Below, one piece after another: positions 29,661 to 58,821 of a stretch of DNA of 64,000 bases. The stretch covers positions 682,001 to 746,000 of the forward strand of contig BROI01000004.1 of NCBI GenBank assembly GCA_027923505.1. Reading direction: 5' to 3'. The notes below the pieces were generated by a model, which ran no database searches, was not told the DNA's origin, and was given only the letters and a program-made list of their open reading frames with translations. The stretch is from Mayamaea pseudoterrestris. Taxonomy: Eukaryota. Each line of letters opens with the position of its first letter. The stretch's first letter is position 1. The position numbers and the translations under genes are program-made.

Positions 29661-32300
29661 ATGATGGCAGTCGCACATCGTCGCGCTGGTCAACCGAGTC
29701 GACCATCCAATCCCTTTCAGTCGGGCGGCACCAAGCTTTCCTACGCGGACCCGCGCTATCGATCGCATCAACAATCGCAAACTAGTTGCGTGCGACCAAT
29801 GACGGTGATTGCGCTCATGATACTCTGCGGCTGCTTGTATTTTTTAGGCGCGAGTCCAGTGTCGCCGAGCAGTCTCATGGCGAGTAGTAGCAACAACAAT
29901 GTAGTCAACGCCAAGACGGCGATCATTAGCAGCAAGCCTGGGAGTCTGTTGCAGCAGCAGCAGCAACAACAAACACCACCAATTCCAAACGAGCGAGAGG
30001 AGCAAGCGAATGAATACGATGCGGCGGTCAAGCAGCGACGCGAGGAGCAAGACCAGCAGCGTATGCCAGAGAATGCTAGTCACGATCGAAACGGATCGGA
30101 ATCAACCTTGGAACGCTCGGCCGGCTTTGAGCAAGCGGATTTTGCGAAGGGATCAGAAGTTGCAAGGTCGAATGCGAATGGGTCAGAGGCAGCAGGATCC
30201 ATTGAGAACAACGTTGACTCGGAGCAAGACGAACAAAATGCCAAGGAATCTGACGAAGGCACGGACGGTGAGCAAGATTCGTTGGTCGCATCCACCGAGG
30301 AGGAACAATTGGAGGAAGCGAGACGGCGTGCACCGCCGAACGTCAATGACGACTTGGGCAACGAGTCAACGGATAACGAGGATTCGCAGGAGGACGCTTC
30401 CGGCGAAGAAGGAGATGAAGGAAATGCTGCTGGCGAAGAAATTGACAATGCGTCGGATGAAGAAGGAGAAGAAGATGGGAATGCGTCCGACCACGCTGAC
30501 AACGAACCTGATGCTTCGGGCGAGGAAAATGAAAATGCGTCCGACCAAAATAATGACAACGCTTCGGGCGAGGAAAATGACAATGCGACGGATGAAGAAC
30601 ATGATAAGGCGTCTGGTGACAATGAGCAAAATGCATCCAATGAACAAGGTGAGAATGCGTCGGGCGACAATGAGAATAACACATCCGGTGAAGAAGTGGG
30701 AGATCAAGACGGCAGTCAAGAAAAAGTCGACGCTGCAATGGTGAATGAAAAGGATCAGGTGCAACAACCATTGGACGAGTCGGAAACGCAACTTGCCGAC
30801 AAAGTTCAAGTGACGGAAGGCGTTGCAGCGATTGATGCAGCCAATAGCAATGAAACTGAGGCGACGGGGTCCAACGTGGTGAATGATGCGCCACCAAGTG
30901 TTGAGGCTCAGGAGTTGGCGGCAGCGGACCCATCCAAAGAGTCAGACGCAATTGTTGGATCGGAATTGAATGAGGCCACACTGGAGGGACAATCAAACAA
31001 CGAGACTCAAGCAGGCGAAGCGTCATCGGTGGCCTTGACTGTCGATGAAAGTAGCACGAAGGATGTGAATGTTACACTGCCGGCAGATGACACAAAAGCG
31101 TTGGGTAATACAGCGGATAAATCTACTTTATTAAACGACGGTGACGGCGCAAATAGCTTGAAGGATGAGGTGGTCGCTACTGGCTCGAAAGCCAACGTTG
31201 TCATACCAACCGCGAATGACAATGAGGCCGGCGAGACGGCAACTAAAGACCAACCAGACGGTGATGCACAGCCTTTAAACGTAGAGGCGTCAACGACAAA
31301 TGCTACTGCGGATACTAAAACAGACAAAGAAGACGATCCAAATGCATCCAATGCTGAAGGGGCGGAAAGCGAAGTGGCGATTGCAGAAGAGACAACTGCG
31401 GACGCCTTGGTGACAAAGCCTGAACATGAGAACAAATTTGAAGCCGTCGATCCACTGGTTGAGCAGCAACAAGGCGAAGCTAAGCCAGTAGATGTTGGGG
31501 TAGATAAGGTAATACCGCCGAATTCTGATACCACCATTGCTGAGAAAAGTTCTAAACCTGAGGCAGGTCCCGAACAACCAGACGCTATGAACGAACAAGA
31601 CAAGAATGGCTCACAGAGCCAGAAGGTAGATCAGTCGAAGGACAACGAGCTCGTTAAAGTATCATTGAGAGGTGCGAAACAAGCCAAGGGGGATGGCGGC
31701 TCAACAATGACATCCGACAAGCAAATTTTGAAAGTTGACGCTACCGAAGGCACCGCTGTCAAGCCTGCTGGAACGAGCAAAGACAAGTCAGAGGATAAAG
31801 TGGAACAGACGGTGGACGCAAAGTCTGAAACGAAGACGGACAAGAAGTCTAAAGATAATCATGACAAGAACTCCAAGGACGACATGTCAAAAGTAAAGGA
31901 GGACGAGAAAGACATTATCGTATCGTCCGATAAAGTAAAGAAGGACGAAGAGGCATCTATTGACAAGGACTCAGTAGTAGCAGCCTCGATTGACGAAGCA
32001 AAACCAATCAAGGATGCAAAGAAAGAAAAGAATGTATCCAGTAAGACGGACAAAGCTGAATCTTCAATAGTAAATGTTTCCAAGTCTGTTGTTGCCGAAG
32101 AGGGCCAAGCAACGGTGGACGATCCAAAGAAGGATGACAAATTGTTAGCGAATGACAAGGATGTTGTTGCCTTTGAATCAGATGCGAAAGGTAAATTATT
32201 GAAAGGGTCGAAGGATGCCAAAGTTAAAGCAATCAAGCGCAAGGTAAAAGAGGGCGAGGGTGGCACTGACAAAGCAAAACACCGACGAAAGCTCCGTTAA
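29661..32300 (+). CDS. Acidic low-complexity type II membrane/secretory protein with internal repeats and a Lys/Asp-rich C-terminus
   Basis: Intronless 879-aa ORF, TM 'VIALMILCGCLYFLGA', D/E/N-rich body, ends 'KAKHRRKLR'. Confidence 0.7.
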   Translation: MMAVAHRRAGQPSRPSNPFQSGGTKLSYADPRYRSHQQSQTSCVRPMTVIALMILCGCLYFLGASPVSPSSLMASSSNNNVVNAKTAIISSKPGSLLQQQQQQQTPPIPNEREEQANEYDAAVKQRREEQDQQRMPENASHDRNGSESTLERSAGFEQADFAKGSEVARSNANGSEAAGSIENNVDSEQDEQNAKESDEGTDGEQDSLVASTEEEQLEEARRRAPPNVNDDLGNESTDNEDSQEDASGEEGDEGNAAGEEIDNASDEEGEEDGNASDHADNEPDASGEENENASDQNNDNASGEENDNATDEEHDKASGDNEQNASNEQGENASGDNENNTSGEEVGDQDGSQEKVDAAMVNEKDQVQQPLDESETQLADKVQVTEGVAAIDAANSNETEATGSNVVNDAPPSVEAQELAAADPSKESDAIVGSELNEATLEGQSNNETQAGEASSVALTVDESSTKDVNVTLPADDTKALGNTADKSTLLNDGDGANSLKDEVVATGSKANVVIPTANDNEAGETATKDQPDGDAQPLNVEASTTNATADTKTDKEDDPNASNAEGAESEVAIAEETTADALVTKPEHENKFEAVDPLVEQQQGEAKPVDVGVDKVIPPNSDTTIAEKSSKPEAGPEQPDAMNEQDKNGSQSQKVDQSKDNELVKVSLRGAKQAKGDGGSTMTSDKQILKVDATEGTAVKPAGTSKDKSEDKVEQTVDAKSETKTDKKSKDNHDKNSKDDMSKVKEDEKDIIVSSDKVKKDEEASIDKDSVVAASIDEAKPIKDAKKEKNVSSKTDKAESSIVNVSKSVVAEEGQATVDDPKKDDKLLANDKDVVAFESDAKGKLLKGSKDAKVKAIKRKVKEGEGGTDKAKHRRKLR
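30393..30695 (+). repeat. Degenerate ~24-nt coding tandem repeat encoding (N/D)AS(G/D)EE-like units
   Basis: Recurring 'aatgcgtcgg/gcttcgggcgaggaaaatga' units translate to NASGEEND, NASDQNND, KASGDNEQ, NASGDNEN. Confidence 0.8.
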
Positions 32301-45900: not shown

Positions 45901-48768
45901 ACACTGTTTGAGGCCCCGTCCGTTGACCGGCGTAGTCTTTTCGGGTGAAATACGCCGCTAGATCCCACCTGAGGATGGCAACACGCTGCTCGAAGGCGAT
46001 ATAGTCGGTCCGTGACAGCCAGCTGAACAGCCTTGCGTTTCTTTCCTTTTTTCGTATCGCCATCCAACTCAGCAACAACCGAAAGAGCCTCTTGAAGCTG
46101 TTGATTGTAAAAATGTCTCTCAATTGACGAAAACCGAAGGACGACCTTCTTTTGTATTTGATCTAACAAACCGAGCTGTTGAGAGACAATATAGGATGAC
46201 TTTGTTGATCTCCAGAGTATACTGTTAAGTAAATGTGCGATCCGTTTATTAACGCATCCAAAGCCCTGAAAGTATCTGTTGAATATCTGTTTGATTGTAA
46301 ATGGCTTCAAGCGCAAAAATAAAAGAAGACCATATAAATCGTCTAATTTCCCCCGACCCAAAGGCGTTCCAGTAACCGCCCACCTGTGGCAGCCGGTCAG
46401 CTTGAGCGCCATTTTCGCCGAGCTCGCCGTCGATGACTCAACCCGTTGCGCCTCGTCCAGAATTATACGCCACCACCGTATGCTGATTAGAGGACTTGCA
46501 ACAATGCGGTAACGTTTGCGCTTTCGCAAGTGGGCCTATTATACGGGGGGAGAATTAAACTGTCAGTGCATTGCCAGTTAAAACACGCTACCTAATGCAT
46601 GTACGCACATCTTGATCAGCCGCGACGAATCGGTTGTCATCCGAATGGCAAAGATCCGACATCAGGCTATCAAAGGTCATTAAAACGATATCCGCCTTGG
46701 CAAGAATAGAAGGATGTAGAAACTGTCGCGACGCTGACGTGGAGCGAGTCGACTGCAAGGCTTTCACTCCTTCATACACAACAACATTCAAACCGCCTTC
46801 GCGCGACGTATGCTGCGCAATTTCGTGTCGCCATTGATCCAGAATAGCAGGTGGAGTAATAATAAGAGTTGCGCCACTATTCAAATCGTTGCTCCCAGAC
46901 GCAATACAGCTTGGACAACTGCTGGCGTAGCAAGTGAAGCACGGAATGGCTTTGTTAGTGAATCGTTGTCGAAGTTTGTAATGACACTGGCTGTTGGTCC
47001 CATCATGTTTCGGCCAATTGGCGCATTCCATGTGCATCGGCTCTCTGCACGAGGAACAAACCACAATTGATTGTCCTTCGCAATCCGTAAACCCAATGAC
47101 TTTGCCGCATATGCATGATCCGAGCTCGTCGTCGTCAGCCCACTCCTCCCTGACAATATGGCGCACATCCATTAGCTTCTCAGGTGTGACAGGTGCGGCG
47201 CGATTGCTTGCACAGACCGTTGTTGGATCAGTTCGACTGTTCCTTGATAAAGATTCCTCATCCGAAGAATCTTCCGCGTCACCAAACTCGGCCAAATCTC
47301 CCACAAAACCGACATTGTCACCGGAAAGATCAATCATTTCGTCAGCATTCGTCGCCCGAAGCTTTTCATCACTAGTCGTAGAGTCTGGGCTAACTAGTTG
47401 TCGATCATTTGCAATGGTAGTGGCAGTTACCGATTGGTGCACTTCACCGAATTGCGGCATTCGATGTGCCAGAATGCAGGCTAACACCTCAACCGTCTTT
47501 CCAAGTCCCATGGATTCAGCCAAAATTCCACCGCGAACGACTAATGCTTCATCACCAACAGACATTGCCCTTGCATCCTCGTAGCTAGTCGCGAGCCATC
47601 CAGTGAATTGGTTGTAATATAACGATGCCATGGGTGCATTTTTTAAAGACGCAGCCATATAGTCCGGCAAGAACGTATAACCTCCTTGATCGCAGTCATG
47701 CAACACCACCCATCCCAACTCCCACTCGCGGCTTGGTGCCGCTTGCTCCTCCCGCTCCAGCATCCATTCAACGGCTGCTTGCTGGTACGGCCGCAACGTT
47801 GGCAGCAAGCCAGGAAACACTCGTCGTCGACAAGTTGCTTGCTCCTTTTCGTCGAGCCATGTTTGCAGTTGCACATTGTCAACGACCTTGTATATTTGAC
47901 GCGCCGTCACATCCGGTACACTTGACGACGGCGCAGTGTTTGAGAGGCCAGGAAAGAAGCTTGCCAATACGGTGCGCATTTGATCGGCTTTCTGACGCTG
48001 CTTGGAGTGCGGACTGTTGAGCAGCGACACTGGCAGATTTAATGCATGGCAGGTTTCCAACGCCGCGCGAGTCACGTGAACATTGAGTGTCGTCGTCAAA
48101 ATCGTTGTTGTTTGAATCTCAAAGCGCAAAAAGGCTTGTTTCAAGCAAGCAAGTAGGTTCGGCAGCGACTCGACGCCAGGCAACGAATAATGCTTCCAAA
48201 GGTCGGCCACCCCAAGACTTGTGCTAACGATAGATGCTGGCGGCAGCTTCGAGCCTACTTCATCAAACTTAACGATTGTGTTTGGCAAAACAAAGCTGCG
48301 AAGAAGAAACGTTGGCGCATCATCGGCAGACGTTGTTGCGGTTCGTGGCGAAACCTTGAGAACCGTCACCTCATCGTCATTTTGCGACAGCATTATTTCC
48401 GGAGGCAACATTGCCGTGACAAGTGATTCGGAGAAGGAAACATTCTTTATTCTTCTTGCCTTTTTCCTGCGGGGCGGAGAAGCGCGCGGTCGTGCTGTTG
48501 GAACGACTATAATGTCCTGCGAATCGTCGTCACTGTCTTCCTTCTCAGACGCATCGTTAAATTCAACGTCCTGTGAATTGTCGGCATCATCAACCTCAAA
48601 TAATTGTCGCCGCGTAGTGCGTCGTTCTTCTTGTTCTTCCATCAATTCTTGCCGCAGCAAATCTTGTGGTGAAGATCCAGACGCGCGTCGACCAAGCCAC
48701 GCATCGTCCGACGATTCGTTCGAATCCACCTCTCGCCGCTGTACTGGAACAGATTTTGATCGTCCCAT
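42977..48768 (-). CDS. SHPRH: SHPRH-like SNF2 helicase / E3 ligase (PHD + RING); introns 46536-46608, 44636-44714, 44265-44345
   Basis: 'LRPYQ', 'GGILAESMGLGKT', PHD 'CICG..CSSC..H..C', 'ILDEAQ', 'VTGTP', 'LRAACCHPQ', RING 'CPIC..CGH..C..C', 'IVFSQW', 'QAISR..RIGQ'. Confidence 0.9.
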
Positions 48769-49052
48769 GTTTGCGAATGTTGATAACGCTTGCAAGCAAA
48801 ATGTAATGTAAAATGGCTGAGCCCTCGCCACAACCACGAAATTAACGCGGATGGGAGTTTCGAAAGAACATCAAGATGCGCTTGGGAACCAGGCTCAAAA
48901 CAGATTCCTCATTAACTACATGAAGAAGCTGGCGCTTGCAGAAAACTTTGGTTTAGCTAATGTGTCGGAACCAAAGCCTCCCCCATGAACACGCTGACGA
49001 TCGGGCGGACCAAGCGCGGTCAATCGTCACGGCAGAAGCTGTGCTGTCCCAG

Positions 49053-50215
49053 GATGGGATGGTGCTTCTATAATTTGGTCTCGCGTGGTCGTGATCCAGG
49101 AATTATCAGCTGCAGCAACAACAACAATCCCAAAGGAGCAGACTGGTTCGTTGTTGGTGTAGCGTGTGCATTGCGAACAAATTTGGTCATAGTCAAGGTC
49201 ATTGTCGGTCTAGTTGGTTGTCAGTGTGCCCCGCGGGACATGCGCCACTCCGAACCGAAGAACAAGGAAAGATTGAAGAGGCTGTTCGCTGGCCATCACC
49301 GAGGTTCGACAGACAGTGGCGGCAGCAGCAGCTCTGGGTGGTCATCCTCCAGCATGGTCTCCTCGCCGCAGGATTCTTGCACAAGGTTTGCCGCAAGGAC
49401 AGCCGACGGACAGCGACAATCGGATAACCTTTCGTCGGCGCATTTGGAGGAACAACATCATCAGACACAATGCGCCTATCAAGTTTCTGCACAAAGAGGC
49501 TCTTTTCTTCCTTCGAACAATACTGATACCATGGAAGACGGCTATGGTTTCTTCGTAGACTTTGCCGAACCAATGATTGACGAGCGACAACTATTGACAG
49601 ACTTTGGAGGGCCTCTGAAGCGGTCGTCGTCGCACCTTTTCTCGATTCGCGAAGCTTGAGAGAGTTGAGGGCTGTCTGTTACTGAGTTTGATGGTTTGAA
49701 CGAGACTGATTGAGAGAGAGAATTTTGCATTATTTGTACACTTCCCCTTCTCCTGCGTTTGTTCGCGAGAGAAACAATTCTATTCTTCAATGGCTGCACA
49801 GAAGCTGATTGATATGAGATCGCATATAATTACATAGAATTTACATTGTCATATTGATGAAGTATGTAGTTCACATGGTAGTTGCTACTCAATAGTCGCA
49901 GCTTTATGTTACAGTGCTGACTTCCCCAGGTAACGGCTGGCGAAGCGCTCGCTGCAGACAGCGAAAGAGACGGCGATATCGTGCATAGAATACTCTCGCA
50001 AACAAAGGATACCTCCCCTGCTCAGACGAATATATTGACAGGTAATTTACGGGAGACTTGCTGTGGATGGGCAATGCCTACACGTGCAATGCCCAACCAT
50101 GGAAATTATCGGTAGAAGGTGACACCTTCACGAACAAACACTGATCAATTGGCTTACAATATTCATGAAAGATGAATTTTAACCTGTCTTTTCTTGATTC
50201 TTTTGCTAGAGTAAA
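49053..50215. repeat. Direct repeat copy 1 (counterpart 56070-57763), lacking a 514-bp internal segment
   Basis: Colinear matches from 'gtgatccaggaattat' (49091/56124) to 'ttttgct..agtaaa' (50215/57763); weaker match back to 49053/56070, so ends are approximate. Confidence 0.9.
49292..49659 (+). pseudogene. 5'-deleted duplicate of the small gene at 56796-57218; possibly a chimeric ORF from 48985 or 49240
   Basis: Encodes GHHRGSTDS..YGFFVDF..HLFSIREA like copy 2 but lacks the MPRILSRSE start. Confidence 0.6.
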
Positions 50216-50799
50216 GATGATGGAAACTGAATCGGCAAAGTGTAGAGAGGAGCTATTGTGGGGTAGCTTTTTGCCGTCTTTCCAGAATGTTATATCGCAC
50301 GCGCGAATGGGCAACGTGCGGCGTTCGACTTTGTCGCCTTGATGGATCTTAAGGTACTCGCAAGAGCGCATGGCAAAGAAGACGGCAAGGCCAACTAAGA
50401 GCTGAAAATGACTGTAAGCTGGGTTGTCGGAGCGCTCCATGATAAGCTTGCGCATTAGGGACATCGGGAGCGCCATTTGATGACGTGTAGACGGATCCAA
50501 ATTCTTGTAGCCTTTGTAGAGTCGCTCGAGCACTAGGAACGTGTCGCCTCCTTCGTTTTTGCGGGGATCTGGATGCCGGCGGCTTTAAAGGCCTTAGCCA
50601 CACCATTGATGGTGGACTGGACAGATCCGGCAACCAAGAAGGGATTGCCGTTGCGTGGCGCTGAGTAGGCGCCGTTTCTGACGGATTGGACAAAGGCAAT
50701 GAAGAGGATGAGGCGTTGTGAGTTGCAGACCTCGAGGAGGAACGGATCCGTGGCAAAACCAGCTCTTTCAGAGAACTGTATCCAACGGTCCCAAGCCAT
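50210..50799 (-). pseudogene. Tyrosine recombinase, frameshifted near 50533 and truncated near 50210
   Basis: 'WDRWIQF..DPFL..VQSTINGVAKAF' then 'YKGYKNLDP..ALP..FFAMRSCEY..DITF..SVSIIF'; no downstream HxxR/Y motifs. Confidence 0.8.
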
Positions 50800-52553
50800 G
50801 TCTTCTCTAGCGTGTGTGGCGCGTGTGACTCCGAAGAACTCGTTGTGAGCCGCATTAAGGAGGAGAGCGCGAACGTAATTCTGCTCGGTAGACGACGCAC
50901 GCGAAAGGACGCCGGTACCTGTGATGCCAATGAAGGAATAGAGAGGATATGGGAGGTGAGATCGGCGTTTGAACGGTCCATATCACGTGATATCAAGTCG
51001 GGGACCACGTTATCCAATCCCATTCGCCACTGCGAGTTGCAGCAGATTCCGTATTCCAAGCAGACGGCGGACAACAGCCTCGCTAACAAGAGCGTTTGAG
51101 GACTGGCTGTTTTGTCTGAAAAGTTGGATCGACGCAACCAAGCTGCTGCAGTTGTATTGTCGCCGATTGCAAGCACGCAGTCCCCTGGATTGAGGCGTCC
51201 TTCGAAGGCGGCGAGCCAAATGCCGACGACGAAACCAAGGAACTCGTAAAAGTTAATGTGCTGCGGCTTTGCGCCTTTTGGAACGCGCCATCGCCATCCT
51301 CGTCCATCCAAATCGTAGCCGCCAACTTGATACATGCAAGCGTCCGTAAGGATAAAGGCGTCGGCAAGGCGAGTGACAATGGTGTTGATATCCACGCCAG
51401 CGTGCGCAGTCGCAAGGAGCTCCAAGCAGGCGAACAAATCGCGGCGTTCTGCTCGAGATAGACGAGCTCGCTTGTACTTTGCACCCTCTGCTCGTTGCTT
51501 TGCCGAATGGATCCTGCCGAGGCAATGGCTCATGGCTGTGACGACGACTGAAACGTGAACTAGTCGTCCGTACAGCGTGTTGAGGATTGCAAGAGGAACG
51601 ACGTGTCCTTCCTTGGTCAACAGCGCTCGAATATCCTCCGTATAGAGGCGATACTTGTCCTGTGGGAGGCGAATGATAAGCGTGCGAGTATCAATCTCCC
51701 AACCAAGGACCACTTGAATCTCTGTTAAACACCCTTCTGCAATGAGCTTGGAGACTGCAATTAAAGCGTTTCGCGGTAGAGGTTCGTCGGCACGCTCGGG
51801 GCGACCAAGCACATCAAGTAATAATGGGATGGCATGAGCACCACGGATCAATGCGTCGTTACTAGTATGGACAATGACGCCAAGATGATCATCAAGAAAG
51901 ACGTCAAAACAAGGGCTGCCATCAACAGGGATCATAGCACCAACTGCCATGGGGCGAGATGTTGCAAATGGTGTTGATGGCGTAGGATACACGACTGGTT
52001 CCACGCTGATGTTGGCATTGAACCTGGATTGGAGTGTCGCAGGGTGCCAGTTGCCGTCGCGGACAAGCTGGTTCGCCGCGTCTGTGACTAGTTCCGAGAG
52101 GTCACTGAAGACCGTTGGGCATGGCGAGCCACCGAAAGTCATGCGAAGGGCAATGAGCGCCAGCGTGGAGTTGGGTGTGATGCCTTTTGTGGTGGTTGCC
52201 GCTTGGACAAGTGTTTCGATGCCAAAGTGACAGTTCTTGTAGGCCGATTTCCAGTCATACTTGGGTAAATAGATCGCTTCCTGTTTATACTTGTCGCGTG
52301 TTGCAATGATGCGATGTAAAAGGTGTTTCAAAGCAAAGCCATAAAAGACTGGTGGTAGATCCTCTTTACGGACTCGTTTATTGACAGAGGTGCCAGCGTG
52401 GAGGCGGCAGAACGTTTGATCGTGCGTAATGCGACCAGCCTCCTTGCGGGATCCATCTGCCTGGAGCTTGAGTTGCTTAACGTATCCAAATGGAGCCACA
52501 GAAACGTTGGGAATGAGTATGTGAGTCCTTCGACTGGAAGAGGCAGATGCCAT
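50349..52553 (-). CDS. Reverse transcriptase - RNase H (pol); N-terminal part continues upstream to about 52900 in broken frames
   Basis: RT motifs 'KYDWKSAY', 'MTFGGSPCP', 'FLDD' (51888-51899), 'LGWEIDT'; RNase H 'TDAC', 'HINFYE', 'GDNTTA', 'NVVPDLISR'. Confidence 0.9.
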   Translation of the reverse strand: MASASSSRRTHILIPNVSVAPFGYVKQLKLQADGSRKEAGRITHDQTFCRLHAGTSVNKRVRKEDLPPVFYGFALKHLLHRIIATRDKYKQEAIYLPKYDWKSAYKNCHFGIETLVQAATTTKGITPNSTLALIALRMTFGGSPCPTVFSDLSELVTDAANQLVRDGNWHPATLQSRFNANISVEPVVYPTPSTPFATSRPMAVGAMIPVDGSPCFDVFLDDHLGVIVHTSNDALIRGAHAIPLLLDVLGRPERADEPLPRNALIAVSKLIAEGCLTEIQVVLGWEIDTRTLIIRLPQDKYRLYTEDIRALLTKEGHVVPLAILNTLYGRLVHVSVVVTAMSHCLGRIHSAKQRAEGAKYKRARLSRAERRDLFACLELLATAHAGVDINTIVTRLADAFILTDACMYQVGGYDLDGRGWRWRVPKGAKPQHINFYEFLGFVVGIWLAAFEGRLNPGDCVLAIGDNTTAAAWLRRSNFSDKTASPQTLLLARLLSAVCLEYGICCNSQWRMGLDNVVPDLISRDMDRSNADLTSHILSIPSLASQVPASFRVRRLPSRITFALSSLMRLTTSSSESHAPHTLEKTWLGTVGYSSLKELVLPRIRSSSRSATHNASSSSLPLSNPSETAPTQRHATAIPSWLPDLSSPPSMVWLRPLKPPASRSPQKRRRRHVPSARATLQRLQEFGSVYTSSNGAPDVPNAQAYHGALRQPSLQSFSALSWPCRLLCHALLRVP

Positions 52554-53819
52554 CCTTTTGCAGTCTCTTCTTACGTGTCGAGTACTGCGCGTTCCGTTTT
52601 TGCTGACTTGTGATTCCCATAATCGACCATGGCGTTGAGCTCTTCAATGCGCGTTTCCTCGAGAGGATCGAGAGGAAAAGCCACGCCTGTCGAGAGTGTG
52701 CTGCGAACACGCGGCCGTTAGGGTGGCCGGAAGATTGGATCGAGTAGTTCCACTGGGCGAAAGTTGGATCCCGGACAAGTTGGCAAATCCTTGTTACAAG
52801 AGCAAGTGGCGCAAATCCATGTCGTTGGCTTGGAGAATGGATAAATTGAACTGGCAGCTTCGGCGTAATTTCAAAACGGAATGGCGGCGGAAGTAAAGGC
52901 GGTGGCAACCACTGAGCGCTTGGAGGATGGACTGCAGCCAGGTGTCGTCGGTGACGGCCAAGGAGCGAAGGTCGATCAGTCCTGGATCGACTAGTTCAGT
53001 CGATAAAGCGAGTCCAATTGATTGTGTAGTGGATGTGGCGTTAACGTGGATGTTAATTGGGACGTTTGGTGGGTTTGTTGCGGACTCGTCCTGAACGGAC
53101 GAAGGGATTCGAACAGTCCATTTGAGGACTCGTTGAAAGGAGGACTTACTCATTTCGTTTGATATGGAAGAAGGGTGCAGGAAAGTGGACATCGGATGCT
53201 TATGTTTAATCCGTTTAGTTGCTGGTTCATTCTTTGTTGTTGTAGCGGCCGATCCGTTTGTGTCGCCGTCGTCTGCCTCCTCCTCTGAGTCGTCTCGCTC
53301 GGTACGAGCAGCGAGGCGACGCGCAGTCCAGGCAAGTTGATGTTTGCGCGCTGGTGTGAGCTGGCGTGATGGCGAGGCAAGGATTGCGGGAGCGACTGTT
53401 GGAGCGTTGATTGCAAACGTTGGCTTGGTAGGCGTCGTGGCGACTGTCGTGGTTGCCGTCGAGTCTGTAGCATGGCTTGTTGATGCCGCGGACTGATGAT
53501 TAATGGAATGAACACTGGAGGTGGCAGAGTCGTCGTCGGAGGAGGATGACTCGTCCTCGATGGTTGCTGTTGCTGTTGATGAAGTGAGTGAATCAACTTG
53601 TTGTTGGAGACGTTGCCATTGATTGTGAAGTTGACGCAGCCTTGGAGAGGTCGCAGTGGCTGCCGGTGGGGCATGGACGTGTTCGTTGATGTTGTTGTTG
53701 ACGAGTCGACTAGTAGCGTTATTGTAGGGATTGGAACCTTGTGCTACTAAGTTATTGTCGCCGTAACTAGTAGAGGCTCCTCCAGCATGATCATCCGCCG
53801 ACCATGTGGAGGATCCTCC

Positions 53820-56066
53820 TCAGGACTCGTCTTCATCCGCGGCCGCTGGTGGGTTGGCGTCTCCATTGGGATTGGCCGCTTGAGCAGCGATAAACGCTTC
53901 GAGTTTTACTTTATCTTGAGGGCGCAATGGACCATGCATGTTTTGACAGATGCGGTAACGGCATTCGCCGCGAAGGTAGTAGTTCAAGCAAGGGCGGCCT
54001 GCCTTGTTGCCGATCTTGATCCGAGGGCTGCGACGGAAGCTGCCTGGAGGACAGAGGCTTTGATACGTATGCCCTGCTGGGATATCCAACTTGTTTGGAT
54101 TGATGCGAGCTTGAAATTGGCGAGCTCCTGCGCCACCTTCATCGCCGGTCTTCGCTTGCTTGATTACAGGAGGAGAGGCTCCTCCTGGTGGCTGGCCGGC
54201 GCCACGTTTGGCAAAGCGATGCGATGGAAGGCGCTCGAGCAGGAAGGATGGAATGGTGCAAAGGATGCTTGAAAAGCCGCAGTCCAAGTACTTGTCAAGG
54301 GTTTCCAACTCGTCGAGGCGAGTAGGGTCGAAGATGGCGTCCTTGAAACAATGGTTGAGGAAGATGTTGATCTTGGTGTCGATCGTGTTGGCGAACTGAG
54401 CGATGGCGTCAGGATCTTGATTCTGCAACGTTTGCATCTTGTCAATGCGATTCGCTAACGTGGAAGCCAAGGAGCGAATCTTTTGAGCGATGAGGGTGGA
54501 TGTGCCGCTGGTTGGAGAGAGGCCAGCGAGTACGTCAAAGTAAACGGCGTACTTGAAGAGGCCACGGACGAGCGCGTTGCCATCGGATGGAAACTCCCAA
54601 ACAATGTCGCCAGCAATCTTCTTCATGGTAGATCCTTCAACTTGATTGTTGGCTAGAGCTTGGCGATCGCAAAGGTCATCAGTAGAATGAACGACAACAA
54701 GACGTAAATTGAGGAGGAGATGTTCATGGTTGAGTCCCGGTTCGACGCGGGATGTCCGTGAGCGTGCGCAGCGACACCCCTTTGCCAACAACAAACTCAG
54801 CATTGTAGGCGCTCGCAAGCTTGCTTCAACAACGAGTGAGCCACATCTTTCTTGGACGCAAAGAAGTTTGTGTGAAACTCTGAAGGGTTCGACGCCATCG
54901 ATGCATGCCGCTAGGCGACGTATCATCAGTTGGTTTTCGGGAAGGAGCTTGGAGAAACCAGTTGACGACGACTCGCCTGACTTATACTTCTGTTCAATCA
55001 AAAGACGTTGGTTCTCATCGACGCGCTTGCGCTCTTCGTCGCGGCGTTTAGTTTCCTCGGCGTGGCGCCGTTCTCGATTGGCGGCGAGCTTGTCCTTCTT
55101 GGCATGAACTTTCGTGATCTGCGCAACTGATGTCATTAACGTCGCCAACATCGACCGAAGTTGGTTATTATTGTTCAAGTCAATAGGTGGTTGGTTTTTA
55201 GGATCCTCGTCGCTGTCGACGTCGGAGTCGTCGTCCGTTCGTGGTGTTGAGATGGCTGGTGTTGACGCAGCTGCCGTGATTCCTGCGAGCTTAGTTGCTT
55301 CGAGCAGATCCAACGTGACGTCTTCCGGGATGGTATTGGACTCAAGGGTGACTGGAGCTTTAGGCAGCTGATGGAGGATACTGAGTTCAGGTTTGGAAGG
55401 CTTCGTTGTCGTGAGGCGGACGCCCCACCAAAGCAGTTGAATGAAGGGGAAACACGACTGGATGAGCTTGTCGGTAGGGACTTGCTTGTCAAATTGATCC
55501 GGCCACGTCGCCAAGGTTGACATAAAGGCTGAAAGGATGCCTTCAATGTCGTATGGACCGTGCTTGGCAATAGCCTCAATGGCAAGTGGCGGGATGGGAA
55601 AACAGGCGGACGAAACAAGAGGCGTCGAAGCGTTGGTTTCGAGCTTGAGCAATTCCTCGAGGACTGGACGCTCCAAGTTCTTCAAATCGAACAGAACCTC
55701 GCCCAGAGGCGTGTAGACAGGCGTCGCCTTGTTGGTAACAAGCTCAAGAGTCTTGACGTCAATCAAAGTGACCGGAGCGGAAGCCTTGTGACCGAGGAAG
55801 GCAAACAACGTTGACGCGTTGCGAGGGTTGCTTTGATCCTTGGGAGCGAACGTGAAATGGTGAGCCACATGCACTCCAATCTTGTCTCCATCAAAAGAAA
55901 TGAGAGCAACTGGAGTCGCGGGAGTTGCAAAGAGCTTCTCCAATGAGCTCTCGACCTTGTGCTCTTGGAACGTCATGATGGTTTGAGCGAGTCCGTTGTA
56001 GAGCGGAGGAAGAACGCGGCGGTTGCGACTCGGGTCCGAGTAGTAGGAGAGCCAGTTGGAAGACAT
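53820..56066 (-). CDS. Gag-like ORF1 with C-terminal CCCH zinc finger
   Basis: 'CLNYYLRGECRYRICQNMH' (C-x8-C-x4-C-x3-H, 53934-53990), a central coiled coil, and position upstream of pol. Confidence 0.75.
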   Translation of the reverse strand: MSSNWLSYYSDPSRNRRVLPPLYNGLAQTIMTFQEHKVESSLEKLFATPATPVALISFDGDKIGVHVAHHFTFAPKDQSNPRNASTLFAFLGHKASAPVTLIDVKTLELVTNKATPVYTPLGEVLFDLKNLERPVLEELLKLETNASTPLVSSACFPIPPLAIEAIAKHGPYDIEGILSAFMSTLATWPDQFDKQVPTDKLIQSCFPFIQLLWWGVRLTTTKPSKPELSILHQLPKAPVTLESNTIPEDVTLDLLEATKLAGITAAASTPAISTPRTDDDSDVDSDEDPKNQPPIDLNNNNQLRSMLATLMTSVAQITKVHAKKDKLAANRERRHAEETKRRDEERKRVDENQRLLIEQKYKSGESSSTGFSKLLPENQLMIRRLAACIDGVEPFRVSHKLLCVQERCGSLVVEASLRAPTMLSLLLAKGCRCARSRTSRVEPGLNHEHLLLNLRLVVVHSTDDLCDRQALANNQVEGSTMKKIAGDIVWEFPSDGNALVRGLFKYAVYFDVLAGLSPTSGTSTLIAQKIRSLASTLANRIDKMQTLQNQDPDAIAQFANTIDTKINIFLNHCFKDAIFDPTRLDELETLDKYLDCGFSSILCTIPSFLLERLPSHRFAKRGAGQPPGGASPPVIKQAKTGDEGGAGARQFQARINPNKLDIPAGHTYQSLCPPGSFRRSPRIKIGNKAGRPCLNYYLRGECRYRICQNMHGPLRPQDKVKLEAFIAAQAANPNGDANPPAAADEDES

Positions 56067-56069
56067 CTT

Positions 56070-57763
56070 GATGGGAGGAAGACTTAAAAATCTATAATTA
56101 CTGGTCTCGACGGGAGACTCGGGGTGATCCAGGAATTATGAGCTGCAGCAACAACAACAATCAAAGGAGCAGACTGGTTCGTTGTTGGTGTGTTGCGTGT
56201 GCATTGCGACCAAATGGTCATCCACGATCAAGGTCATTGTTCCGGATGACCACGACTAGTTCGGAGTTGTCAGTGAATGCCCCGCGGGACATGCGCCACT
56301 CCGAACCGAAGAACAAGGAAAGATTGAAGAGGCTGTTCGCTGCGAACGCCGCTGGCGTGGCTTGAAGGAACTTGGAATCCTGAAAGCACCACCTCTCATT
56401 TCGACCAATCCAGAATCCCAAAACGCCATCGCCAAGATCGAGCGAGCCAACTTATCGCTCCGGCACTCACTTTCCGCTGCGCTGTTCGATGACGTGGCTG
56501 AATTTGAAGCTTTAACGCGAAAGGGTGCATCGGCACGCTCGTTGCGGCAGCCAATGGAAACGCTGCAAATGGCCACGCAATGCGGTCAACGGTTCACGAA
56601 AGCGAAAGACATGGACCCTCCAAGATGGCGATTGCTTCCGATGGTGGCGCGTCATGGTCGTTCCTCCGATTTCCATCAACGAGCGACAAATCCTGCATGC
56701 GGCCAAAGGATCCATTTGTCAATTGCAAAATAGCAAGTGCTTCATCGCATACAACTACTTCTTGTCTAGTCGAGCAGTGTCTGTCTCGTTTTGTCATGCC
56801 TCGCATCCTGAGTCGATCCGAACCTCTTGGTCTTCGCAAAAGCTACAGCTACCTTGGCCATCACCGAGGTTCGACAGACAGTGGCGGCAGCAGCAGCTCT
56901 GGGTGGTCATCCTCCAGCATGGAGTGCTCGCCGCAGGATTCTTGCACAAGGTTTGCCGCAAGGACAGCCGACGGACAACAATCGAGTAACTTTTCGTCGG
57001 CGCATTTGGAGGAACAACAACATCAGACACAATGCGCCTATCAAGTTCCCGTCACAAGAGGCTCTTTTCTTCCTTCGCATACAGATACCTTGGAAGACTC
57101 GTATGGCTTTTTTGTAGACTTTGCCGAACCAATGATCGAGGAGCGACAACTATTGACAGACTTTCGAGGGCCCTTGAAGCGATCGTCGTCGCACCTTTTC
57201 TCGATTCGCGAAGCATGAGAGAGTTGAAGGGTGAATTCCACTGAGTGTGATGGTTTGGGCCAGATTGTTTTCACCATAGTGATTGAGAGAGAGAATTCTG
57301 CATTTGTACACTTCCCCAGCTCCTGCGTTCTGTGTTTGTTCGCAAGAGAAACAAGTCTTATTGTTAAATGGCTGCTCAGAAGCTGATTGATATGAGATCG
57401 CATATAATTACATAGAATTTACATTGTCATATTGAAGTATATTGTTCACATGGTAGTTGTAGCCTTACGTTGCAGTGTTCAGTCGCCATGCAACGGCTGG
57501 CGCAGCGCTCGCTGCAGACAGAACGAAAGAGACGGCGAAATCATGCATAGATTACTTTCACGAACAGAAATATTCACATGTTTAAGACGGGGAGACTTGC
57601 TGTGGATTGGCACTGCTTGCGAAAGCATCAAGTGCAATGCATACCCATGGGAGACTGCCTGTTGAAGGTGACAACCTCGACGAACGATCACAAGGACAAG
57701 TAGCTTACAGAATTTATGAGCAGTGGACTCAATCTGTATCGTTGATACTTTTGCTGCAGTAAA
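56070..57763. repeat. Direct repeat copy 2 (long form)
   Basis: See copy 1; additionally contains 56343-56856. Confidence 0.9.
56796..57218 (+). CDS. Small Ser-rich hypothetical protein (140 aa)
   Basis: ATG at 56796; frame is preserved between the two copies, with only whole-codon indels. Confidence 0.6.
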   Translation: MPRILSRSEPLGLRKSYSYLGHHRGSTDSGGSSSSGWSSSSMECSPQDSCTRFAARTADGQQSSNFSSAHLEEQQHQTQCAYQVPVTRGSFLPSHTDTLEDSYGFFVDFAEPMIEERQLLTDFRGPLKRSSSHLFSIREA

Positions 57764-58000
57764 CATTGACCACTCTGTCTGGTTTTGGCGATGGGGTTAG
57801 CTCGATTCGTGCCGGGTCACTACTTTCCTGTCGCACTGAGTACCGCTCTGCGTTTGCGGTCATGAAACCGTCGCTCGACGAAAGGCAAACAGCAAGGAAC
57901 CTTGTGTGCATTGCATCCTTGGCTCGTGCTATCTTACTCGCAACTTTGAAAGCACTAGAAAATGGCTCACCAACCAATCTCCGATGGAAGTAACAACGCC

Positions 58001-58821
58001 ATGTCGAGCGTACTGGGTCTATACAGCAGCGCGTACGTTTCAGTTGCTGTTGCTAGCATGCAACGGTCATTTCCGCACTCGAATTAACCGTTTGATATTG
58101 TAAAATTACTTGATTGACTCATACTGACTCATCATTCTCTTGCAATAATATAATATTACAGCAAGGAAAAGTGGGATGCCAGTGGCGCCAACGAGGCCGT
58201 CGGCCGCTTGAATGCCTCGATACCCGACTCGACCAGAACGCTGGTCAGTTCCATGTTCAAGCGAGAGCACTTGCGGTCAGTTTCGGTAGTCTTTGGACTT
58301 GGCGAGGAGCGTCCATTCTACGTGGAAAAGACGCCGTCGCTGCTGGTGGAGCGGCTGCGTCATAATATGGTGTTCTTCTACTTGAACTACATGTTCATTA
58401 CGGCCATTTTGTTTTGCTTGACGCTACTGATTAGTCCGGGAGCGATTATTGGAATTGGGCTCTTGGCCATGGCGTGGGTGGCGCTCATTCGGGCATCGCA
58501 GAGTGGTTCTTTGAGGATTGGAAGTACGTAGCAGGACTTGTGTGATGATTGATTGCCACCTTTGAACGACTTCACCTCACTTTGTATACAGGCATTTCAA
58601 TTCCACAAAAGACAGCAACCATTGGCATGGGTGGCGTATCGATATTTGTACTCTTGTATATCTTGTCGAATATCTTTTGGTGGACGCTCTTTTCGTCGGG
58701 TTTTATTGTTGCGGCGCACGCCTTTTTGCGAGATGCGTCCATGCACAAGGATTTGGACGACGCTGTTGCCATGGAGGGAGACTTGAACTTGGGCGAGGAT
58801 GCAGCCTTTTTGAATGCGTAA
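58001..58821 (+). CDS. PRA1: PRA1 family (prenylated Rab acceptor); introns 58033-58161 and 58524-58591
   Basis: 'RLRHNMVFFYLNY' and 'AHAFLR'; GTACGT..CAG introns keep frame. Confidence 0.88.

Follow-up and report, generated by a model that had tools for sequence, protein, structure and literature searches.

Gene-bearing direct repeats around a Ngaro-like retroelement in the diatom Mayamaea pseudoterrestris: very probably an assembly artefact at an element on one of two haplotypes

The Locus and Its Genes

The window analyzed here is a stretch of 64,000 nucleotides of Mayamaea pseudoterrestris (GenBank assembly GCA_027923505.1, contig BROI01000004.1, positions 682,001 to 746,000), referred to as G000:C4:682001-746000, where G000 is the whole assembly (30.6 Mb, 41 contigs). 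A first-pass annotation made from the letters alone had placed a retroelement with gag (CCCH), reverse transcriptase (RT), RNase H, and tyrosine recombinase (YR) on the minus strand between two diverged direct copies of one segment. Both parts of this description are present in the assembled sequence: gag, pol, and the first half of YR lie between the copies (Table 1), which were recovered by self-BLAST of the window (49091-49291 resembles 56124-56342 at 85%, and 49290-50218 resembles 56855-57766 at 79%, E 0.0) and by a local alignment of copy 1 and copy 2 as one unit, starting at 49053 and 56070, respectively. As annotated, copy 2 starts just upstream of the gag ATG (14 bp from 56068), copy 1 starts at the point where the recombinase frame ends, and translation gives the same small plus-strand frame in each. 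The description of a single 1.7-kb repeat unit did not hold, since copy 1 is only ~1.17 kb long and is without 512 bp present in copy 2 (56343-56854), and each copy is a composite of the A repeat of the element and host DNA. The true end of the element, B2, lies outside the range given for the structure, 49053-57763. Elsewhere in the window, self-comparison detected a 42-bp direct repeat at 30423-30599, with copies 86% alike and 135 bp apart.

Contigs from public sequencing runs were compared with the locus. Five runs of two studies contain part of 48400-50500, two of them more than half (0.74 and 0.72), with no RNA run among those listed, and four runs (X1-X4) were compared over 47500-58500. 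All of these data are contigs (Logan), not reads; X1 belongs to study P1 and X2 to study P2, one of which may have supplied the reads of the assembly itself. Because rare variants are lost from Logan contigs and some records are filtered out, a joint missing from them is not proven to be absent. X4 is RNA-like only by one GT..AG skip.

The left flank carries the 5' part of an SNF2/SHPRH-like gene, whose next frame matches PF21325 (SHPRH), and is single copy in the assembly (one full match, and one match of 119 bp elsewhere). The PRA1-family gene of the right flank has a 129-bp GT..AG intron (58033-58161) that is skipped in a contig of X4, a run that also covers the coding part of both versions of the small gene. 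A full scan yielded two homologues of the small gene, one of them full-length (P0037; 54% identity over residues 1-139, E 7e-19) and having the N-terminus found in copy 2 only; a word-index search gave no homologue among 13 candidates, and the gene has no Pfam match at the cut-off and no known family. The small gene is a host gene. In copy 1, 17 codons derived from repeat A stand in place of its first 20, and the resulting 139-codon chimeric frame is most likely an artefact. Without the element, the SHPRH-like gene and the small gene would start ~480 bp apart. An insertion splitting a host reading frame was considered and dropped, the site being between two gene starts once the ends of the element were fixed.

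Table 1. Features of the locus (positions in the 64-kb window unless a contig is named)
Feature	Position	Strand	Support or remark
SNF2/SHPRH-like gene, 5' part (left flank)	46588..48768	-	PF00176 E 3.7e-22; ATG at 48768
B2, 3' terminal repeat	48886..49051	-	clean to 48985, blended after
Blend of B2-spacer-A2 and the other allele's promoter (putative consensus artefact)	48986..49215	.	alignment-score test
Clean A2 piece	49216..49291	-	74/74 aligned letters equal to C10
139-codon chimeric frame	49240..49659	+	17 codons of repeat A + allele 2 of small gene
H', second allele of 56856-57762, very probably misplaced inside the element	49292..50215	+	502-bp contig, X1 and X2
Tyrosine recombinase (YR), first half	50216..50982	-	first catalytic Arg box only
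pol (RT + RNase H)	50352..53819	-	fragmented in the window; a single frame of 1100 codons in C10
gag/pol TGA	window 53817-53819; G000:C10:654909-654911	- (window)	
gag-like frame with CCCH finger	53820..56068	-	PF25542 E 0.0034, below Pfam's cut-off
A1, 5' terminal repeat, 342 bp	56082..56423	-	341/342 equal to C10 A2, 340/342 to C10 A1
G, host promoter + first 20 codons of small gene	56424..56855	+	single copy: no second match in G000
Small host gene, 140 aa, allele 1	56796..57218	+	P0037
H, host segment, allele 1	56856..57762	+	462-bp contig 57406-57867, 0 differences, X1 and X2
Right flank with PRA1-family gene	57795..58821	+	PF03208 E 1.4e-09; 1 match in G000

Coding Frames and Class of the Element

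In the relative on contig C10, gag, pol, and YR are frames of 780, 1100, and 284 codons, following one another on one strand with YR overlapping the end of pol, and the order in the window is the same. RT was supported by Atlas features at 0.94-0.96 to RVT_1 clusters (family share 13-92%), RNase H by features at 0.94-0.96 to RT_RNaseH clusters (family share 12-23%), and YR by Phage_integrase clusters at 0.96-0.97 (family share 27-36%); a copy on contig C19 retains the whole YR frame, with all R-H-R-Y boxes in one frame. We take certain motifs of pol to be the catalytic motifs of RT and the boxes of YR to follow the R-H-R-Y pattern of such recombinases. Pfam matched no RT, RNase H, or integrase family in the proteins of the window, C10, or C19, nor an RT family in the 14 of 36 pol homologues scanned, and PDB sequence and profile searches with pol gave 0 matches. 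Of the 36 homologues, 31 come from public assemblies and have 30-42% identity, and none of the 36 is a named reference protein of Ngaro, PAT, or VIPER. No methyltransferase domain was matched by Pfam in pol, but Pfam misses even the RT of this protein; only 156 residues follow RNase H, and these overlap the YR frame. The element would work like Ngaro and is called Ngaro-like here, its placement with Ngaro rather than PAT being tentative.

Gag and pol share one frame, which in the window and C10 copies alike is interrupted by one TGA with a G after it. The stretch 54850-55500 of the window is an open, diverged gag variant with no other match in the assembly, covered by neither X1 nor X2 and partly by X3; it may be the genuine sequence of this copy, overwritten in part by reads from related copies, or have arisen by natural recombination. 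Identity of the window core to C10 is patchy (73% to 100% per 250 bp), and some frame breaks of the window are not supported by contigs, namely 50575 (X1, X2) and 54702-54808 (X2, and part in X4).

Terminal Repeats and Genomic Copies

The left C10 copy is built in the order A1 (342 bp), gag, pol, YR, B1 (167 bp), A2, 19 bp, and B2. The first-pass annotation had typed the element as Ngaro/PAT with split direct repeats, and this plan (A1..B1-A2-B2, with the internal pair downstream of YR) is seen whole in this sister copy, where B1 equals B2 at 167/167 letters and the A pair is 99.7% alike. The B2-spacer-A2-B1 joints are present in contigs of X1, X2, and X4, and a 342-bp A1 contig was found in X2. 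Of the split repeats, the window retains A1, B2, and part of A2 only, its own A2 and B2 being partly blended; alignments showed it to lack the 5' 81 bp of A2, together with B1 and the second half of the recombinase. At the 3' end, 104/105 letters of 48881-48985 equal the C10 copy, and the contigs diverge from the window at 48985 and then continue like C10. The ends of the element coincide exactly with the termini of the family. There is no target-site duplication: no adjoining repeat is common to the flanks at 48885 and 56424, and the longest word common to the 40-bp flanks has 6 letters and lies away from the ends. The five letters outside B2 agree at 4/5 between window 48881-48885 and G000:C10:649949-649953, a possible target preference, judged from two sites only.

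A genome-wide match search with the core and the repeat was run, as suggested in the first-pass annotation. Copy 2 as query gave 15 matches in the assembly, 3 in the window and 12 outside, and all 12 outside matches end within the first 334 query letters, i.e., at 56423, so that in this search they stop within A1 and the gene-bearing part is absent from every other copy. The core has relatives of 86-98% identity on contigs C10 and C19, as well as a sister family near 70%. The flanks beyond A1 at C10, C19, and C20/C4 (three insertions) are unrelated to the host segment of the window.

Several of the other copies are irregular. G000:C10:650140-664939 (L036-L038) holds two 7400-bp copies, 100% identical, with a double A repeat joint without B2 between them; this joint was found in none of the contigs listed and may be another assembly error. 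G000:C19:116470-125296 (L040-L042) is a copy with a 1055-bp internal duplication, followed by a single A repeat and the start of a second copy. An older copy (85-89%) is present at G000:C20:60026-67503 and G000:C4:1169001-1176316 (L044-L049), with gag split by ~6.5 kb of other DNA and with its A1 flank shared by both places, the pair being either a segmental duplicate or two haplotypes. Decayed, isolated pieces of the A and B repeats lie at G000:C1:395283-395423, C1:1169972-1170169, and C19:131294-132910.

Copies 1 and 2 are Alleles of One Gene

The same 502-bp contig occurs in X1 and X2. It follows 49828-50215 with 0 differences, continues with 37 letters that resemble 57763-57794, and enters the right flank at 57795; in both runs the contigs of copy 1 thus continue into the right flank and not into the recombinase. 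Depth was also suggested as a check, and the depths of the two copies sum to that of the flank in X1 (74.8 + 85.3 = 160.1 vs 160.2 at 57818) and in X2 (13.3 + 21.2 = 34.5 vs 34.5), which is support only, as depth is not equal to copy number. Because the contig of copy 1 enters the right flank and the depths sum to the flank's, copies 1 and 2 are alleles of one gene, leading to one right flank. Since each flank occurs only once in the assembly, there is no other place in it for the second allele. Over 120 common codons of this one gene, the alleles differ by a dS of about 0.18 and a dN of 0.063 (dN/dS 0.36); the coding DNA is 93% alike and the 3' non-coding DNA 84% (ungapped), plus 19 gaps. In the SHPRH-like gene, the X1/X2 contigs show at least 12 differences within 47967-48680, of which at least 10 fall in 48205-48394, as is consistent with high heterozygosity.

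Among the X1 and X2 contigs listed, none contains the joints that create copy 1, at 49291 and about 50215, or the joint of 56342 to 56855. The depth of the bin 48968-49334 (20.9 in X1 and 5.46 in X2) is fully accounted for by its first 18 letters, which end at 48985, so the rest of the bin, the joint at 49291 included, has no cover. Loose contig ends at 48985 and 56082 read like the B2 and the B2-spacer-A2 of C10. The empty joint (48885 to 56424) is directly visible in none of the contigs; it would probably fall below the 95% likeness cut. No contig among those listed bridges the insertion joints at 48885 or 56423. Regions of the core are uncovered as well (51904-53004 in X2, 52271-53004 in X1, and 54840-55206 in both or nearly so), and such bins are evidence neither way. 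A 23-letter pattern common to both alleles, used to look for an independent empty site, had 0 matches in metagenome contigs.

The Blended Stretch 48986-49215

The stretch 48986-49215 is a blend of the B2-spacer-A2 of the element and the promoter of the other allele. Aligned with G (56424-56854), it scores 0.504 per base against 0.222 +- 0.040 in controls (z 7.1; 0/720 controls reach the score), while the true C10 stretch scores 0.199 per base; aligned with C10, it has 15 gaps and has lost 50 letters. The match is colinear with G at 56555-56790, where a left-anchored empty allele would lie, and the pull is confined to 48941-49260 (sub-windows z 1.9 to 4.0), the first clean sub-window being without it. 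The pull is not seen in 29 bins of the core (largest z 2.6); the core is not drawn to the right flank either, nor is H' drawn to the stretch of the element that was replaced (0.170 vs 0.176). The claim rests on this alignment-score test and not on the short-word test, in which the number of words common to the blend and G did not reach significance (it was equalled or exceeded in 136, 125, and 284 of 1078 controls for 6-, 7-, and 8-mers).

The lengths fit an overwrite: from 48881 to the YR joint there are 1313 bp in the window vs 1319 in C10, and H' starts within about 20-30 bp of the position expected from an empty allele. An old solo-repeat allele as the other haplotype was rejected, its lengths fitting worse than those of an empty allele (about 530 bp too long). 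We know of no biological route to such a letter-by-letter mix, and we infer that a colinear, length-keeping mix of two unrelated sequences is the product of a consensus step on reads of two alleles.

Origin of the Gene-bearing Repeats

We consider it very probable that the gene-bearing direct repeats are an assembly artefact at an element carried by one of two haplotypes. A young Ngaro-like element of about 7.6 kb (A1-gag-pol-YR-B1-A2-B2) would be inserted on one of two strongly diverged haplotypes, within a space of roughly 480 bp from which the SHPRH-like gene and the small host gene start in opposite directions. Haplotype 1 would read left flank, whole element, G, H, and right flank, and haplotype 2 left flank, G', H', and right flank; that the second haplotype lacks the element is most likely, judging from the blend and the lengths, and we infer that the insertion at this site is real. 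In a collapsed haploid assembly, haplotype 1 would have served as the backbone, and reads from the empty haplotype would have been anchored by their left-flank part and then forced along the 3' end of the element. The consensus or polishing step would then have blended both over 48986-49215 and replaced the next 0.92 kb (the rest of A2, B1, and the second half of YR) by the other allele, ~1.2 kb being overwritten overall. Such an overwrite would produce the false direct repeat, the false truncation of YR, and the false chimeric frame. Of the three origins offered in the first-pass annotation, this corresponds to the stitching of two haplotypes in assembly, with which the contigs, the depth sums, and the blend test all agree.

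The structure could also be real in a subclone, a break in the 3' end of the element having been repaired by copying the homologous chromosome so that allele 2 was fused in frame to repeat A. The 12 letters that H' and YR have in common at the 50194 joint and the 2-letter overlap at 49291 might be repair microhomologies, the fusion is in frame, and a rare subclone would be among the variants that the contigs drop. However, an aligner also tends to switch at short matches, the X1 and X2 contigs follow H' without a break into the right flank, and repair leaves both the 230-bp blend of two unrelated sequences and the conserved total length unexplained; we regard this origin as very unlikely. Slightly more improbable still is the second origin offered, that host DNA surrounding the element was duplicated in tandem long ago and that the copies are paralogues that diverged in place. 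Their divergence bears the mark of purifying selection (93% coding vs 84% 3' non-coding, dN/dS 0.36), but diverged alleles give the same pattern, each copy has about half of the flank depth, the contigs carry copy 1 straight into the same single right flank to which copy 2 leads, and A1, at 99.7% likeness to young copies, is too young for such an age.

The least probable origin, which we practically dismiss, is that the 1.2-1.7 kb segments are unusually long A1/A2 termini holding a captured or antisense accessory gene. It was suggested by the start of copy 2 just upstream of gag and by the same A sequence opening both copies. It fails because the flanks of other copies are unrelated beyond the 342-bp A repeat, at three other insertions (C10, C19, and C20/C4); the 12/12 outside matches end within A1, and the repeats proper to the family are A, of 342 bp, and B, of 167 bp, whose joints are present in contigs.

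Comparison with Known Systems

The element resembles the Ngaro of the stramenopile Cafeteria burkhardae, which is arranged as A1-[ORFs]-B1A2B2 with a gag-like ORF1, RT/RNase H, and YR, in its split-repeat plan, its proteins, and its 6-7 kb scale (PMC8547959). It differs in having a 19-bp spacer between A2 and B2 and in the lack of a Pfam RT/RNase H match, the C. burkhardae Ngaro being described with PF00078 and PF17919 (PMC8547959). The same split-repeat pattern is described for PAT-like and VIPER-like YR elements, and the weak CCCH match of the window gag recalls the Gag zinc finger of Pat1; PAT elements encode a methyltransferase domain (PMC4157794, PMC6681497), and Pfam, which misses even the RT, matched none after RNase H here. 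Structure alone does not classify YR elements, as PMC4157794 cautions. By analogy with the mobility model cited in PMC6681497, the element most likely moves as RNA that is reverse transcribed, with jumps from one split repeat to another, into a circular DNA, which YR integrates without target-site duplication. Ngaro has already been reported as a repeat class in a diatom (10.64898/2026.04.27.720831). The present element is an ordinary new representative of a known kind and adds another young Ngaro-like family to those of diatoms.

Assembly trouble at putatively heterozygous insertions, in that case of virophages, is also mentioned for C. burkhardae (PMC8547959). Diverged haplotypes are known in diatoms from Fragilariopsis cylindrus (PMC5634323) and the allopolyploid Fistulifera solaris (PMC5935921), where alleles diverged enough to assemble apart and the non-coding DNA is less alike than the coding, as here. 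Unlike in those genomes, the assembly collapsed at this locus, and the second allele is visible only through the error.

Implications

A false lead is removed by this analysis: there is very probably no new type of terminal repeat, no gene capture, and no chimeric gene. It also brings out a recognisable artefact, a length-conserving overwrite with a blended edge. Such artefacts will arise at heterozygous insertions in collapsed long-read assemblies, so that interrupted frames and unusual repeats found elsewhere in this genome should be checked against reads.

The real remainder is modest, a young Ngaro-like diatom family and a sign of strongly diverged haplotypes. Judging from one gene, we tentatively suggest, while holding it somewhat short of probable, that the divergence of the two haplotypes goes well beyond that of ordinary alleles and is of the kind found in hybrids or allodiploids, that the collapsed assembly hides this, and that a young YR element sits on one of them inside a 480-bp two-way promoter. 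If so, the element could bias expression between the alleles of the SHPRH-like gene and of the small gene. The strong allele divergence is the one lead worth genome-wide attention.
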